A stretch of DNA of 36,035 bases, taken from a virus. Lineage: Duplodnaviria > Caudoviricetes. The DNA lies in the IMG/VR virus record IMGVR_UViG_3300038393_000133, positions 1 to 36,035 of that record. One strand, written 5' to 3'. A program made the position numbers and the translations under genes. The notes beneath the pieces were generated by a model that made no database searches, was not told the origin of the DNA, and saw nothing but the letters and a program-made list of their open reading frames with translations. How positions within the stretch are numbered: the first letter of the stretch is position 1; the number at the start of each line of letters is the position of its first letter. Below are positions 4,512 to 36,012 of the stretch, piece after piece.

Positions 4512-5081
4512 ATGAACGAGATTTTTGAGTACGATGAAACAAGTCCTTCGGGGATGAGATGGAAAGTTGACAGATATACGGGCCACTCCAAGACACGAAA
4601 GCATATCACCGCTGGAGATGTAGCTGGGCACTGGAGCAAAGCAGGTTACTGGACTGTCAACGTCAACAACAAAGCCTACTATGTGCATCGTGTTATCATG
4701 GAACTGCATGGTTACGATATAGACGGACTTGAGGTTGACCACCGTGACAAGAATAGATCGAATAACAAGCTAAGTAATCTTCGTGTCGTGCCTAGAGTCT
4801 TTAACTCCCGGAACATAACGATGAGGGATGACAACTCAAGCGGAGTGACTGGTGTTGTATGGCAAGAGTCAAAGTACAGCACCGTCGCCACTGCTTGCTG
4901 GCAAGAAGCTGGACGGCAACGTCGCAAGAGTTTTTCAGTTGGTAAGTACGGGCTGCTAGAGGCGTTTGCCAGAGCGGTCCAGTTCAGAAAAGAAACCATC
5001 CAGAGGCTTAATACCGAAGGATATGACTATACGGAAGGGCACGGAAATGACGCTACGGATCGAGAGCGGGGATTTGTTTAA
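4512..5081 (+). CDS. HNH homing endonuclease with AP2-like domain (paralogue of 2150..2713)
   Basis: FEYDETSPSGMRWK; YYVHRVIMELHG; VDHRDKNRSNNKLSNLR; DNSSGVTGV; KSFSVGKYG..EAF..A; YTEGHG. Confidence 0.88.
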   Translation: MNEIFEYDETSPSGMRWKVDRYTGHSKTRKHITAGDVAGHWSKAGYWTVNVNNKAYYVHRVIMELHGYDIDGLEVDHRDKNRSNNKLSNLRVVPRVFNSRNITMRDDNSSGVTGVVWQESKYSTVATACWQEAGRQRRKSFSVGKYGLLEAFARAVQFRKETIQRLNTEGYDYTEGHGNDATDRERGFV

Positions 5082-25660: not shown

Positions 25661-27118
25661 TTATCCTGTGTTGTCTCGATTTCTCGCTGACTTGTCCTGC
25701 TTACTGGACTTGCCACCGATATCTGCCGTACCTTCGCCGGATTTACCTACCGCCATGCCGTCACCGGAGCGACTTGCGTTACCCGTCAGATTTTCTTTAT
25801 CGACAGGCTCATCAACAGGTAGCGGTTCCACGCCAAGGACTTCACGAGTCTTGTTCAGGATCGGACGGTCAATTTCAACCAGACCAACAGATGCCGCACG
25901 TTGCAAGGCTTTCGACCACGCTTCGCTATCGACTTCGTTCACGTCACCGAATTCAAATGTCGGAAGACGATCTTGGTTCCAGCCATTCAATGCGAACAGT
26001 TGCGGGATCAGATCGTTGTTCAGGACATCACGGATTTCGTTCAGTCTGTGTTCAATCGCCATTTTGCAGAGAATGCCTGCTTCCTCTTCTGTCGCTGTCA
26101 ACACTCGCGTGGATAGCGCAGTACGGATATCTTCCTGCAAAGCTGCGATAATTGCCGGGATGTCGAATTTGTTGTGGCCTTTTGCTTCCATCAACGTAAA
26201 TTCGAATTGCTTGTTACCACCATCATCCAACACCAGCGGCATCACTAGGGAGCGCTGTTTGCCGTCTGCGATTGCTTGAGCGGCATTCAGGTACGCTTGG
26301 TACACTGCACGCTCGGAGTCGCTTGCGTCATTCGCCATAAACTTCGGCGGAATGTAGATGACCGGCACAGAAGCAATGTCTTTCGACACACCAAGCATCA
26401 ACTGGTCTTTAAGCAGTGTTAGCTGCTTATATGGTAGGTACACCGATTTCAGGATCGACTTACCTTCGGGGTTACCTTTCACGCTGTCAGCGGAGAACAA
26501 CATGAACTTCGAACGATCGATTGTAATCAGTCCGTTCGGGTCAGCCAGATTTTGGAATCGAGCCGAGTTTTCCATGTTGCGAATGCTTTGACCTACGCTC
26601 AACAGCTCACGACCATCTTCGGAGAAATTCCAGTGGCGAATCGTGTCTTGAGGGCGTGTTGCGATCTTGCGTAGCCCTACCAAACCATCGTTGTACTTGC
26701 TCCCGTTCCTTTGTAGGCGGCGGCGAAATACTTTCTCTTGAATGGAGAAGCCGTATTCGATGTACGTTACGACTTCAGCCATAAACTGGGGCCATGACCC
26801 TTCCATGTCAAACATACAGCTTTCAACGAACTCTGCACGCTGCTTGTCAGTCGCAGTGGCATTATCTGGCGGAGCTACATGCCAGTCTACGCCGGTAATC
26901 ATCATTCGGTAGATACCAAGCGATGCTGCGATTGTCGGGTCGGTCTTCATTTCCGTAACAGTTTTCAGGAACTCAGGGAATCGGAAGACTCGATTCTGTT
27001 CCTCAAGGATTCGACCGCTCATGGTCGTCAGGCCGGAGAAACCGACCTCACTCAAACTGATACGTGGGATTACTGTATTTGGGTCGGCCCCAAGGCCGCT
27101 CTGCTCTTTCTCAGCCAT
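25661..27118 (-). CDS. portal protein
   Basis: 485 aa between terminase and protease; M..DP.I, YGFS..EKV, NPEG.S.L, LN..LIPQLF.LNGW motifs (DUF935-like portal). Confidence 0.88.
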   Translation of the reverse strand: MAEKEQSGLGADPNTVIPRISLSEVGFSGLTTMSGRILEEQNRVFRFPEFLKTVTEMKTDPTIAASLGIYRMMITGVDWHVAPPDNATATDKQRAEFVESCMFDMEGSWPQFMAEVVTYIEYGFSIQEKVFRRRLQRNGSKYNDGLVGLRKIATRPQDTIRHWNFSEDGRELLSVGQSIRNMENSARFQNLADPNGLITIDRSKFMLFSADSVKGNPEGKSILKSVYLPYKQLTLLKDQLMLGVSKDIASVPVIYIPPKFMANDASDSERAVYQAYLNAAQAIADGKQRSLVMPLVLDDGGNKQFEFTLMEAKGHNKFDIPAIIAALQEDIRTALSTRVLTATEEEAGILCKMAIEHRLNEIRDVLNNDLIPQLFALNGWNQDRLPTFEFGDVNEVDSEAWSKALQRAASVGLVEIDRPILNKTREVLGVEPLPVDEPVDKENLTGNASRSGDGMAVGKSGEGTADIGGKSSKQDKSARNRDNTG

Positions 27119-27749
27119 TAGTTGCCTTCCATTTCATATAGTCGGAGTCCTTCGAGGGAATCCAACCAGATTTAAATTTATCCGTTATTGCTGTGAGCTG
27201 CCGGAAAGTAAATGAGCCGTAAGCTTTCGCAAGGCGGCGATGGCCGCACGCCGGTATCGTTAGATACGTTTCATAAAGCGACTCTGCAACTCGCCAAACA
27301 GCTACGTTCGCTCTACCGTTGTCCCAGTCCTTAAACCTACCAGATGTTGACGCTTTCCGAGTACTAACCATCTTTGATACGGTGTCAGGCGAAAGTTTCT
27401 TCCCTTGCCTAATTGCAGACATGCGTGATTTAGTCTCGTCACTGTGCTTCATTCCGCGCGTTGAGGGTATATCACCACCCACTGCGCAGTTCCAGCCTAT
27501 CCTTGAAGATGGTCGAAGACTACGTTCTATCGTGTAGCAGTAGTCGCTGTCACCCTCCACTATGGTATCTACGGCGACCTTATCTCGGTACTTTCGAATA
27601 GCTTTGTGGACAGTATATTGCGAGCCCCGCCTTGCATCGCTGCTGTGTTTCACGAATCGCTTTGCGGCTGTAGTATTGCTCACACCTACGTAGCCTTGAG
27701 AAGCAATATCAGTGTGCTCTGGAAGGTGTAGCCAGTAGACAACTGCCAT
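27111..27749 (-). CDS. GIY-YIG-type homing endonuclease with NUMOD3 repeats
   Basis: VVYWL...GYVGVS....KR...H; E; GWN...GG; GMKHSDETKSRMS..RQGKKLS.DT..KM. Confidence 0.82.
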   Translation of the reverse strand: MAVVYWLHLPEHTDIASQGYVGVSNTTAAKRFVKHSSDARRGSQYTVHKAIRKYRDKVAVDTIVEGDSDYCYTIERSLRPSSRIGWNCAVGGDIPSTRGMKHSDETKSRMSAIRQGKKLSPDTVSKMVSTRKASTSGRFKDWDNGRANVAVWRVAESLYETYLTIPACGHRRLAKAYGSFTFRQLTAITDKFKSGWIPSKDSDYMKWKATNG

Positions 27750-27777
27750 AGTGCTCCTTCTTTACTGTATATGCGCT

Positions 27778-27806
27778 ATTGTACACTACGTAGTGCTCCT
27801 TGTCAA
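27778..27806 (-). promoter_or_regulatory. sigma70-type promoter for the NUMOD3 endonuclease
   Basis: Minus strand: TTGACA aggagcactacgtagtg TACAAT; the -35 overlaps the TGA stop of the upstream gene. Confidence 0.8.
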
Positions 27807-28600
27807 GTTTCGACCATTTCCATGTATTCAATAACGTCTGGTGGAACGGTTTTTGCTACAAAACATTCCGTATATCCGTCGAACGATAAGTCTGGGCGTT
27901 CGTAACCAGCACTACTTACCATAGAAAGTAGTTCCGCTTCTGCTCTGACGCACTTCTCTCCGTCCTCAAATTTTACGTACTTTACGATGTCGAATTTTAC
28001 GCCAGCCCTACTTGAGACGAATTTAGCTCTGACACTAACTTCTGAATTTGTTATCCCTATTTTGAATATACCGTTTGATTGCAAAACGTACAGGTAGCCC
28101 GCCTTCTTCTTATCGAATCCGCCCCTTCCTCTGTGGCACTTCTGACACCCTACACCACGTACCGAGTGATTACCTGCATGTACAGTAAACTTCTCGTTGC
28201 AAGTTCTGCATAGGACTTCAATCTTTGATGCTTGGTTAACAAAGTCAATATAAGAGTAGTCGTACAAGTCCCCATGCTTTTTGATGCATTTATTGATAAA
28301 CGCTGTCTTTCTTTTCTCGTAAGCCTTGCAAATGCTACAGCCCTTACTTAAGACGTACTCTCCATGCTTGCCGCACACTGCTCTTTCTGCTTTTGGACGG
28401 CCAATAGGGCTACAAGCATTGCACCCATAACCTCCGTACGCGTGGTTATTATGTTGAATAAGGAAGTCGCCGTGTACTCTGCACGTAACAACAACTTTCT
28501 GACATTGACCGTTATACCTAGTTCGGCTGTAGTCGTACCTGTCTCCGTGTTTTTTAACGTATAAGGCGATAGCCTCGTCGTTCGTCAGAGTCTTCCGCAT
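27803..28600 (-). CDS. putative homing endonuclease with Cys/His repeats and C-terminal GIY-YIG-like (T5orf172-like) domain
   Basis: Two copies of KKHGD.YDYS...Y/F.....K..V.C.....F.....NH...G.GC..C; then GYLYVL.....FKIGIT...R and DGYTECF. Confidence 0.78.
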   Translation of the reverse strand: MRKTLTNDEAIALYVKKHGDRYDYSRTRYNGQCQKVVVTCRVHGDFLIQHNNHAYGGYGCNACSPIGRPKAERAVCGKHGEYVLSKGCSICKAYEKRKTAFINKCIKKHGDLYDYSYIDFVNQASKIEVLCRTCNEKFTVHAGNHSVRGVGCQKCHRGRGGFDKKKAGYLYVLQSNGIFKIGITNSEVSVRAKFVSSRAGVKFDIVKYVKFEDGEKCVRAEAELLSMVSSAGYERPDLSFDGYTECFVAKTVPPDVIEYMEMVET

Positions 28601-33720: not shown

Positions 33721-35637
33721 TTACAGGTACAATCCGCCTGTTCCGGTATCCGTGTATCCTGCTGCGTTACCCGGCATGATCGTATTAGCTGCTCCATACG
33801 ATTGAACCAAGCCTCCAGCATAAACGTAGAACTTGGTGCCAGTGCTGCCCGTAATCGTGAACGATGTATCGTTGATGAATAGGTTCGCTCTGTTGTACAC
33901 GTTCGTGAAGTTTGCGGAGAACGTGATGTTAGTAGCATCGATTGGTGCGCCCTTAACGACCGTCCCACCTGCAATCTCCCAGTGAGTTCTCGCGTTGCCG
34001 GTGATCTTGTAAGAAGCGCCGGTATCAATCTCGGCACCCGTACCAACCTTCATATGCGCCAAGTTACAAGTCCCAAATTGACAGCCCGCGTCCACGTACA
34101 CGAACGAACCTTGCCCGTACGTGTTAATGGCATTGCCGCTGCTTGATGCCAGAGTTAGTCCATTGATAGTCACGCGAGCGCCATTTTTCACCGTAAGCGC
34201 ATCCCCGACCGTGGAGAACTTAACGTTACCCGGCGTGGTGCTGTTACCTACGATGGACAAGGTTGCGGCACCAAGGCCAGTCGGTTGCCCGCTGATCGTG
34301 ATAGTTTCGGTCCATGTACCGTCTTGTACCTGAATCGTCACATTTTTACCTGCGCAGTCTAGCGTGCCGTAGATCACGTCTAACGCTTTCTGCACGGTCT
34401 GGAACGGATGAATGACGTTGTTGTAGTCCTTCATACCTGTATTGGCCGTATCACTACCGGTCGTACCATTCACGTAATAGGTGCGTGCCGAGCGCAGAAC
34501 TTCCCGAGGACTCGCAGCAACGCCGCCATCGAGCGTGCCGTAGCCGATAGGCGTAGCAACAAGCATCTTGTCCCTCCAGTTCAACGGCAGATTAATCTCA
34601 ATCGTATTAATCATCACAGGGAAGTAGCTGAGGTTCGAAGTGTAATTAGGACCAAACACAAAATCCGTCAGTGCTGACTGTGTACCAGCTCCTCCGGCAT
34701 CGATCCACGGAGTAATGAACGTTGTACCAGTGTATCCGCCATCAAGATAGAATCCACAACCTCCAGTAGTGCCCATTTGGTTGTAATATCCGCCGCACAT
34801 GTTGATCTGGCAGTTAAACATCAACCCTTGGAACCAGAAATTCTTACAGTTGTTGACTCGGCCTTCGAATGCAATTCGCTCGAAGAAATTGCCGAGGAAG
34901 CTGCCAATAATATTGGTTGATTTAGTCCACAGGCCAACAAGATTGTTAGAACCTCGCAGGTCTGCGATTTGTCCGTGTTCAACCCATGTTGATAGGTCGT
35001 TGCTAGTAATATTCAGTTGGCACGCTGTACCGCCTGTATAGTCGTTGATGACAATATCACGCAGGGCATAGGTAACACTATCGTTGAATCTAACCCCGCC
35101 AAGCGCCGTTGCGCCGCCGCCGTTATAGACGTTAGCACCGTCACCCTGAATAATCACCGGCTTGTTGCCCAGCTTTCCACCGCAGTTAGCGTGAAAGAAA
35201 TTCGTCTTGATGTCAAAGCACCATCCGGTGTGCGTCGGGTTGAAACTGTTTCCGCCCAACTCGACCAGAATTCCGCTGCCCATGTAGTAGGCCGTAGGGT
35301 CGATTACAATAGATGATCCAAACGAGTACCCGGCCATCATAAACGGGAAATACAACTTACCACCCTTGTTTGCATAAAGCGCTGCTAGGGCTGCGTTTAC
35401 CGCCGCAGTATCGTCCGTTGAACCGCCCTTAGCTCCATATGCTGTAACGTCAAACACGCCAAGCTGCTGAATAGCTGAACTTGAAAGGCCAGCAATAACA
35501 AGTCGGCCATTGGAATCGACAGGTAGCTCGCTGTTAAACAGGTAGCTTCTCACGTTGGATGTGCCAGTGCCAGCAATGGCGACAAGCTCTCCATTTTCAT
35601 TTAGCCCTACAGCGGGTGAAACTTTTAAACTTGTCAT
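33721..35637 (-). CDS. tailspike / polysaccharide depolymerase-like beta-helix protein, 638 aa
   Basis: Pectate-lyase-3-type entry motif FDVTAYGAKG..TDDTAAVNAA....GG.LYFP; a second module begins RTYYVNGTTGSD...PFQTVQKAL...VTIQV.DGT.TE. Confidence 0.78.
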   Translation of the reverse strand: MTSLKVSPAVGLNENGELVAIAGTGTSNVRSYLFNSELPVDSNGRLVIAGLSSSAIQQLGVFDVTAYGAKGGSTDDTAAVNAALAALYANKGGKLYFPFMMAGYSFGSSIVIDPTAYYMGSGILVELGGNSFNPTHTGWCFDIKTNFFHANCGGKLGNKPVIIQGDGANVYNGGGATALGGVRFNDSVTYALRDIVINDYTGGTACQLNITSNDLSTWVEHGQIADLRGSNNLVGLWTKSTNIIGSFLGNFFERIAFEGRVNNCKNFWFQGLMFNCQINMCGGYYNQMGTTGGCGFYLDGGYTGTTFITPWIDAGGAGTQSALTDFVFGPNYTSNLSYFPVMINTIEINLPLNWRDKMLVATPIGYGTLDGGVAASPREVLRSARTYYVNGTTGSDTANTGMKDYNNVIHPFQTVQKALDVIYGTLDCAGKNVTIQVQDGTWTETITISGQPTGLGAATLSIVGNSTTPGNVKFSTVGDALTVKNGARVTINGLTLASSSGNAINTYGQGSFVYVDAGCQFGTCNLAHMKVGTGAEIDTGASYKITGNARTHWEIAGGTVVKGAPIDATNITFSANFTNVYNRANLFINDTSFTITGSTGTKFYVYAGGLVQSYGAANTIMPGNAAGYTDTGTGGLYL

Positions 35638-35704: not shown

Positions 35705-35781
35705 TGGCACACGCGGAATCGAATCGAACGTTCCTCAGTCCGGTTTGGAGCCGAACTCGCCGCCTTGGTACATGCGCGTGC
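35705..35781 (-). tRNA. tRNA-Trp (CCA), atypical
   Basis: Acceptor GCACGCG/CGCGTGT, discriminator G, encoded CCA; anticodon arm TTCGG CTCCAAA CCGGA; TTCGATT T-loop with a bulged T-stem; weak D-stem. Confidence 0.8.
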
Positions 35782-35794
35782 ATTGTGTTATACT
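35765..35794 (+). promoter_or_regulatory. extended -10 promoter, antisense to the tRNA cluster
   Basis: TTGGTA (35765-35770), 18 nt, TATACT (35789-35794) preceded by TGt; predicted +1 near G35801. Confidence 0.55.
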
Positions 35795-35800
35795 GTATCT

Positions 35801-35904
35801 GGAACTCGCTTCACGGGTTTGGCCCCGTAGGCACAAACTCATGCAATCAACTGGACTGCTTGAGCGCTGTTCGATCCTGTCACCGAGTCTTACGGTGGAG
35901 TTCC
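35801..35904 (+). ncRNA. putative structured non-coding RNA with tRNA-like multi-arm fold
   Basis: 7-bp closing stem GGAACTC/GAGTTCC enclosing hairpins ACGGG-TTTGGC-CCCGT, a long central arm and CACCG-AGTCTTA-CGGTG; bracketed by a promoter and a terminator on +. Confidence 0.55.
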
Positions 35905-35909
35905 CGGAG

Positions 35910-35938
35910 GGCTGCATTCGTGCAGCCTTTCGTCATTT
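35910..35938 (+). terminator. intrinsic terminator with UUCG loop
   Basis: GGCTGCA TTCG TGCAGCC followed by TTTCGTCATTT. Confidence 0.65.
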
Positions 35939-36012
35939 GGCACCCAGCCTTGGTAACGCTCCAAGCCACCTACTTTCAAAGAGTAGTATCTGCCCTTGTC
36001 GATTTGCCGGGA
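35938..36012 (-). tRNA. tRNA-Gln (TTG) with non-canonical T-loop
   Basis: TCCCGGC/GCTGGGT acceptor (U1.U72 mismatch), discriminator G, CCA; anticodon arm CTACT CTTTGAA AGTAG; T-arm CTTGG AGCGTTA CCAAG. Confidence 0.8.

Follow-up and report, generated by a model that had tools for sequence, protein, structure and literature searches.

Locus and predicted parts of the cassette

The stretch of DNA analyzed here (36,035 nucleotides, in the following referred to as the window) stems from a 36-kb virus record with a tailed-phage morphogenesis block on the minus strand. Its terminase is about 41% identical to those of the nearest cultured phages, which are Pakpunavirus-like, and 69-98% identical to those encoded on uncultured IMG/VR contigs, the largest of which measure about 92 kb. 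These IMG/VR relatives possess 13-20 tRNA genes per cluster, mostly with Ile-Gln-Trp in last position and followed by structural genes; the end of the window falls within the tRNA cluster. Between tRNA-Trp and an atypical tRNA-Gln, both encoded on the minus strand, resides the cassette that is the subject of this work and that faces the opposite way (Table 1).

Several other features of the region deserve mention. In the tRNA-Trp of the window, the D arm is unusual and the T stem irregular; the Rfam tRNA model misses this tRNA, though ARAGORN finds it. A 638-aa tail-spike-like gene (33721-35637, minus strand) is located between tRNA-Trp and a conserved head-protein gene; it has weak PHROG matches and no Pfam match, and no gene is present at this place in L009 and L010. 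The window furthermore contains a gene for a nicotinamide phosphoribosyltransferase (481-2094) and four HNH/homing endonuclease genes (27111-28600, 2150-2713, 4512-5081), two of which lie between terminase and portal. Additional stretches that look like structured RNA are a conserved non-tRNA spacer before tRNA-Ile in L002, L006, L141 and L150, with a motif that starts with ATAGGTTGGCCGTA, and some 90 nt that the more distant phages L202, L206, L208, L209, L211 and L213 have in common upstream of tRNA-Trp. In the carrier genome G001, about 150 additional nt containing several hairpins (L141 9325-9470) separate tRNA-Gln from the cassette terminator and are possibly a second small RNA.

Table 1. 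Features of the cassette and of the two flanking tRNA genes (positions in the window).
Feature	Position	Strand	Remarks
tRNA-Trp(CCA), last tRNA of the cluster	35705..35781	-	ARAGORN 35705-35779; 5' end from acceptor pairing
Weak -35-like hexamer	35765..35770	+	18 nt before -10
Whole cassette (157 bp)	35780..35936		8 nt instead in empty-site alleles (X2/X3 contigs; L004-L007, L013)
Extended -10, TGTG-n-TATACT, sigma70 type	35784..35794	+	In 5/5 carriers, 0/18 other sequences
P1 terminal helix, 5' strand; predicted +1 G35801	35801..35807	+	Pair probability about 1.0
P2 arm, about 9 bp with bulge, loop 35818-35823	35808..35832	+	Loop identical in L002, related in L003/L009
Central domain: P3 35838-35864, T-loop consensus 35869-35877, possible closing helix 35833-35/35878-80	35833..35880	+	
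P4 arm, 5 bp, 7-nt loop 35886-35892 ending UUA	35881..35897	+	Pairs covary versus L002
P1 3' strand, no CCA after it	35898..35904	+	
Terminator-like 12-bp hairpin (two G.U on +), short tail	35905..35938	+	Hairpin 35905-32; end is the last base of tRNA-Gln
tRNA-Gln(UUG), atypical, T-loop AGCGUUA	35938..36012	-	Missed by default ARAGORN; homologues called Gln at lowered threshold

An earlier note on this DNA had proposed an extended -10 element that places the start of transcription at G35801. The element is present as stated, and so is its spacing to the predicted start: the TG motif occupies 35786-87 and the hexamer TATACT 35789-94, and G35801 lies 7 nt past the hexamer, which is the usual start position for sigma70. 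The upstream half of the promoter is contained in the D arm and 5' end of the tRNA-Trp gene on the opposite strand. The -35-like hexamer is not diagnostic because phages without the cassette have it as well, and the extended -10 element on its own occurs at chance level (3 sites in the window versus 3.8 expected).

The 7-bp terminal stem and the central arm are present where they had been claimed, while other parts of the proposed fold stood with modifications. The hairpin likened to a D arm exists, yet it is bulged, comprises about 9 bp and stacks on the terminal stem, which is not the architecture of a 3-4-bp D stem. The hairpin of 5 bp and 7 nt directly before the 3' strand of P1 is also there, yet its pair probability in the window is 0.17 and its support comes from covariation. 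The putative terminator likewise has its hairpin, but an A-U pair closes the UUCG loop, and this loop lacks conservation. The earlier note had overlooked a match to the tRNA T-loop consensus at 35869-77. Folding exceeds chance: on the + strand, the body of the window has a z of -2.25 (-2.5 in the comparison of carriers) and, when the terminator hairpin is included, of -4.2.

Owing to its weak U-tail, the terminator escaped the promoter/terminator scanner. In 8 of 11 unrelated viral loci, with near-duplicates among them, the same hairpin-plus-tail lies 3' of a long ORF on the same strand; it therefore reads as a generic terminator for the + strand. A GC hairpin followed by TTCGTCATT was observed to recur after genes in the unrelated viral contigs L034, L036, L042, L056, L068, L077 and L078; this form of terminator escapes simple U-tract scanners.

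Distribution among related phages

Besides the window, four phages carry a cassette in the same slot, namely L002, L003, L009 and L128, the terminases of which are 98%, 92%, 69% and 59% identical to that of the window, respectively. L002, L003 and L009 were found via terminase-anchored loci and L128 via a pattern spanning promoter and tRNA-Trp, that is, four of the five carriers were found without promoter bases and L128 is not independent as promoter evidence. Of 23 distinct sequences preceding a tRNA-Trp of this type, five have an extended -10 element on the opposite strand, and these five are exactly the carriers. In all of them it follows the consensus TGTGnTATAnT with invariant T/A/T positions and points away from tRNA-Trp, a terminal helix begins 7 nt past the -10 hexamer, and the body is followed by a GC-rich hairpin, which together with its tail has nearly the same sequence in the window, L002, L003 and L009. 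It is this conservation in relatives that leads us to regard the observation as real, since the promoter alone is at chance level, the + strand fold is moderate and Rfam is blank. The claim of a self-contained non-coding RNA gene opposite the tRNAs is thus borne out by conserved promoter, +7 helix and hairpin in five phages, and we assign a probability of roughly 85% to the prediction that the cassette is a real, stand-alone + strand non-coding RNA gene.

Sister phages without the cassette have the same tRNA pair joined by 5-10 nt, and contigs from two soil runs (X2, X3) contain 8 nt in place of 35780-35936. A further run, X1, is possibly where the window itself comes from and does not count as independent. 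On a terminase tree with 15 rows, presence and absence of the cassette require at least three changes, for which a single gain plus two losses may account. The phages can do without the cassette, which comes and goes as a whole.

These findings bear on the suggestion, made in the earlier note, of an antisense regulator of the tRNA operon, which we disfavor: the overlap consists of the spacer and the last base of tRNA-Gln, where the predicted RNA ends without reaching tRNA-Trp, and the empty phages keep the tRNA pair with its short spacer. In a more general form, a sense/antisense pair acting in cis, the + strand RNA would pair with the spacer that separates Gln and Trp in the tRNA precursor, or the promoter would interfere with transcription into tRNA-Trp, and either event would tune tRNA-Trp maturation or a structured RNA derived from the spacer. 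Such a pair would be in agreement with good folding on both strands, the G.U pairs lying on different strands per helix, with the overlap between the promoter and the 5' part of tRNA-Trp and with the precedent of sRNA2 and as19 between tRNA-Tyr and tRNA-Gln described for PAK_P3 (PMC4933390). The limits of the overlap, the sister phages and the invariant loops, which are needless for pure cis-antisense action, nevertheless make it rather unlikely.

No carriers beyond the five emerged from further pattern, model and metagenome scans. The P4 hairpin pattern gave one match, which was unrelated, the terminator pattern 58 loci including three carriers, the central 16-mer 11 loci including one carrier, the spacing of promoter plus terminator 32 loci including one carrier, and the metagenome scan two loci, each a copy of a known carrier. 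A one-sequence covariance model of the window body, R1, was run on 100 sources (1.35 Mb) and 40 sources (0.74 Mb) and placed the window and L002 alone above noise. A co-inherited protein partner was rejected because none of 351 ORFs tested against 7 genomes co-segregated with the cassette.

Conservation of the fold

The sequence base for all comparisons is the five known cassettes. R1 scores L002 with 64.6 bits. When pair counts are taken from the two rows window and L002, the chance match L318 being left out, 14 of 33 pairs are the same, 12 carry double changes, five have changed on one side and still pair and two are broken, whereby the model-fitted alignment inflates the counts and the signal in P1 and P2 is partly a register shift. 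Differences between the two affect 31 of 66 paired and 5 of 38 unpaired positions, at a mean identity of the two genomes of about 82%. With hand anchoring on loops and terminator, P1, P3 and P4 together still show six or more double changes; in addition, bases have been deleted on both sides of P2 and inserted on both sides of the central closing helix. Both sides have changed in three of the five pairs of P4, the loop of which ends in UUA also in L002, L009 and L128. The central stretches, including the T-loop consensus and a D-loop-like AACUGG, are near-invariant. Homologue collection and covariation check thus yielded compensating stem changes next to fixed loops for this closest pair. The central closing helix comprises 5 bp in L002 and has a folding probability of 0.0 in the window; if it forms, the RNAs of both would be modeled as a four-way junction free of linkers.

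Beyond this pair, similarity of the bodies fades. R1 gives 6.1 bits for L003 and 4.3 bits for L009 (right place and strand, not significant) and no match for L128. Pairwise comparison of the bodies links the window with L002 (z 15.8), L003 with L009 (z 4.1) and, weakly, the window with L003 (z 2.1). Because pairwise similarity connects so few of them, the five bodies may be different cargoes in one slot. By eye, the bodies appear to share the pattern GUU(Y)RG in the first loop and a terminal UUA in the last. Stable + strand loops are C-UUCG-G in L009 and GAAA in L003. MAFFT/RNAalifold alignments of the bodies were misregistered and were used for the terminator alone.

Choice of strand

The bodies of the window (z -4.1 on the minus versus -2.5 on the + strand), L002 (-2.8 versus -1.1) and L003 (-2.6 versus -2.1) fold better on the strand of the tRNAs, and those of L009 (-2.1 on the + versus -1.0 on the minus strand) and L128 (-4.4 versus -2.5) fold better on the + strand. 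The behavior of the former three is explained by the base of the central arm, which is A.C on + and G.U on the minus strand. The G.U pairs of P1, P2 and the terminator lie on +, and the consensus terminator forms 11 pairs on + and seven on the minus strand. Looseness at this point of the central arm may be intended on +, the spacer may also have to fold compactly within the tRNA precursor, or RNAs may arise from both strands. A search for RNA runs containing this DNA listed none, a result that weighs neither for nor against either strand. On the basis of promoter, helix start and terminator, the + strand is favored over the tRNA strand.

The earlier note had left the strand unsettled and had pointed out that the minus strand folds and ends in CCA. 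Better folding on that strand holds for three of five bodies, yet the CCA consists of bases engaged in pairing, and three homologues lack it. U-N-N-R-A is the T-loop pattern, and on the tRNA strand the P4 loops of the window and L002 fit it. Folding and loop would both suit a functional RNA on the tRNA strand that is cut from the operon transcript like RNA C and RNA D of T4 or sRNA2 of PAK_P3, the opposite promoter being incidental. With the T/A/T positions of this promoter invariant in all five carriers, the helix start at +7, the stronger terminator on +, the better + strand folds of L009 and L128, and a CCA that is neither free nor conserved, we consider this very doubtful.

A coding role was rejected on account of indels, compensatory changes and the lack of a Pfam match for two overlapping ORFs. 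On the minus strand, a 60-aa ORF has no Pfam match and has its ATG in the terminator loop, where L003 and L009 lack it; an antisense RNA of a type I toxin-antitoxin system was rejected since there is no conserved small toxin ORF opposite.

Relation to tRNAs and to known RNA families

The likeness to tRNA stood in part. A 7+5 stack and the T-loop consensus are found in the window, but the stack is not kept and anticodon and CCA are lacking. The exact stack of a 7-bp helix on a hairpin with 5 bp and a 7-nt loop is restricted to the window; in L002 there are 10 bp from +7, in L009 the arrangement is 7+1+5 with an inserted hairpin, in L003 the stack is weak and in L128 it is absent. The last loop, AGUCUUA, is devoid of C56/G57. 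The T-loop consensus does not occur at the window's place in L003, L009 and L128; it is absent from L009 and lies elsewhere in L128. As had been noticed before for the + strand, the sequence holds neither an anticodon loop nor a free 3' NCCA, and the terminator hairpin follows directly after the stem. Neither ARAGORN nor the Rfam models recognize a tRNA at the element, be it in the window or in the four homologues. Negative results with both and the size of just about 135 nt also led us to reject a tmRNA, which would have a tag reading frame and a tRNA-like domain with CCA at its end.

The comparison of the P4 loop with the AGCGTTA loop of tRNA-Gln is a fair one, as A54...UUA loops recur in real tRNAs of the clade. 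In the clusters of the window, L002, L141 and L142, such A54-type T-loops (AUCGUUA, AGCGUUA, AUCGAAA) replace UUCGA in several tRNAs. They were counted in 4 of 15, 3 of 16 and 5 of 20 tRNAs of carriers and in 0-3 of 15-22 in eight empty clusters, a post hoc excess with a nominal p of 0.016 for three versus eight related genomes, which as kin are not independent; the atypical Gln of L002 and L006 escaped the count script.

Searches of Rfam 15 up to an E value of 10 with the window, the four homologues and the G001 cluster returned no family over the element, in line with the earlier proposal of an undescribed RNA. The best match over an element was tRNA-Sec (E 7.4), overlapping tRNA-Trp, and no covariance-model match was obtained for ribozymes, C4, RNA I, SRP, 6S or CsrB/Rsm. 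When the window stretch and three homologues were compared by BLAST with 50,697 annotated phages, short chance pieces or nothing came up. Features that we take to be typical of hammerhead, HDV-like and retron RNAs served for comparison; all three readings were rejected since the motifs are not conserved among the cassettes, and no reverse transcriptase was present among the scanned proteins of the window. RNAs of the ColE1 RNA I type are about 105 nt long, fold into several hairpins, have their own promoter and terminator and lie opposite a structured sense RNA. The cassette likewise combines several hairpins with its own promoter and terminator and differs from RNA I as generally known by the lack of an Rfam match, the absence of a replication primer or toxin ORF on the opposite strand and its helix-closed ends.

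RNA C and RNA D of phage T4 are co-transcribed with the tRNAs. Like the cassette RNA, they are small RNAs from a phage tRNA region (rnaC, rnaD), the role of which is given as unknown (PMC3014915), and BLAST among 50,697 phage records revealed no homology to them. Full-text literature searches found no description of the RNA studied here, and neither the motif nor the contig identifiers occur in the covered files of an IMG/VR structured-RNA catalogue (PMC10690425), the two largest files of which lie outside this coverage and may hold the motif. In PAK_P3, sRNA2 with the overlapping antisense RNA as19 has been described between tRNA-Tyr and tRNA-Gln (Chevallereau et al., 2016), with boundaries refined later (bioRxiv 10.1101/2023.10.13.562163). 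As presented there, sRNA2 is similar in its size of about 120-130 nt, its position between phage tRNAs, a T-loop-like stretch and an annotated RNA on the opposite strand. In contrast to the cassette RNA it is encoded on the tRNA strand, processed and devoid of its own start site, whereas the opposite-strand unit of the cassette has its own conserved promoter and terminator. BLAST and a search of L108 with R1 uncovered no match to sRNA2 in sequence or structure. Taken together, the cassette appears from its sequence to be an uncatalogued, independent opposite-strand unit akin to the orphan RNAs of phage tRNA regions and a member of no tested family.

Since carrier G001 encodes Ro60, we also weighed a putative divergent Y-RNA-like ligand for Ro60/Rsr. 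Y RNAs of the YrlA type contain a GNCGAAN0-1G motif near the 5' end and are encoded within about 4 kb of the Ro60 gene on the same strand (Chen et al., 2014, PMC4201824). In that account they resemble the cassette RNA by an end-closing helix, tRNA-like loops without anticodon and phage-encoded examples, and a 436-aa Ro60/TROVE gene indeed lies about 2 kb away in the tRNA cluster of G001. However, inspection of the five bodies revealed no GNCGAAN0-1G motif, invariant D and T stem-loops as in YrlA are missing, Rfam gives no YrlA match, and the RNA of G001 is located opposite the strand of Ro60. A TROVE gene is furthermore lacking in the complete carrier G006 and in G008 (89% complete), two of the three well-covered carriers; of the four carrier records searched, one has such a gene. 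A Ro60 ligand is therefore highly improbable. The Ro60/TROVE gene of G001 (L141 6211-7521, + strand) is itself flanked by repeats with GTTACTTC (at about 5815, 6005 and 7612), which are maybe Y-RNA-like and have no Rfam YrlA match.

Possible function

A base-pairing sRNA would act on host mRNAs via the conserved central single-stranded stretches, a putative role that would be in accord with the promoter and terminator of its own and with stretches that hardly vary between window and L002, unlike the stems. Being short and interrupted, the U-tail is a poor fit for Hfq; moreover, both ends are locked in a helix and no central sequence is common to all five bodies. In three carrier genomes, matches of 11-13 nt at chance level were the only ones, a shared base-pairing target was not found, and targets in the phages' own genomes were rejected for this reason. 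Despite the phage precedents VpdS and PreS (PMC12197685) we regard this mode of action as unlikely.

With no co-segregating protein and no shared target in the own genome, a host-side role based on structure remains. We tentatively put forward that the RNA is a trans-acting structural decoy made by host polymerase, a reading that is possible though short of probable. It draws on the predicted autonomous expression, on the fold and fixed loops of the closest pair, on the rapid turnover of the body, on the tRNA-like traits and on the lack of a partner or target. Host sigma70 RNA polymerase would read the cassette from +1 at 35801 to about 35938, giving rise to a folded RNA of about 135 nt. Expression would presumably be early since only host polymerase is needed. 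The product would probably not be charged because it has no free CCA and the terminator hairpin is stacked on its 3' end. Acting in trans, the RNA may present a structural decoy to a host RNA-handling protein; the likeliest kind would be one recognizing the top half of tRNA. A defense nuclease or tRNA-modifying toxin would be the preferred, albeit speculative, candidate since promoter, terminator and flanking tRNAs change far more slowly than the body, the pattern to be expected of cargo in an arms race; tRNA cleavage is described as a common route of defense (10.64898/2026.07.14.737667). Against a decoy speak the tRNA geometry, which is not kept across the homologues, and the bodies of window, L002 and L003, which favor the fold on the tRNA strand.

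Going further, the locus could be seen as a swappable slot for RNA cargo in phage tRNA clusters, in which a host-type promoter embedded in tRNA-Trp would drive fast-evolving, non-chargeable decoys of the tRNA top half directed against defense enzymes that recognize T arm or acceptor, beside remodeled A54-type T-loops. We deem this extended scenario quite unlikely. If true, it would represent the first RNA-only, non-tRNA counter-defense against tRNA-targeting immunity.

Significance

Ever since RNA C and RNA D of T4, phage tRNA regions have been recognized as a source of small RNAs, which, as far as the cited descriptions go, are still without function. The cassette is unusually testable in this regard because natural sister phages with and without it exist. 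As a unit of 157 bp with its own host-type promoter it should, in addition, be expressed when cloned alone. Should the RNA prove to be a cis-antisense partner, it would provide a way of timing tRNA supply. Should it protect against tRNA-targeting defenses, a non-coding RNA decoy would join the known resistant tRNAs in phage counter-defense.
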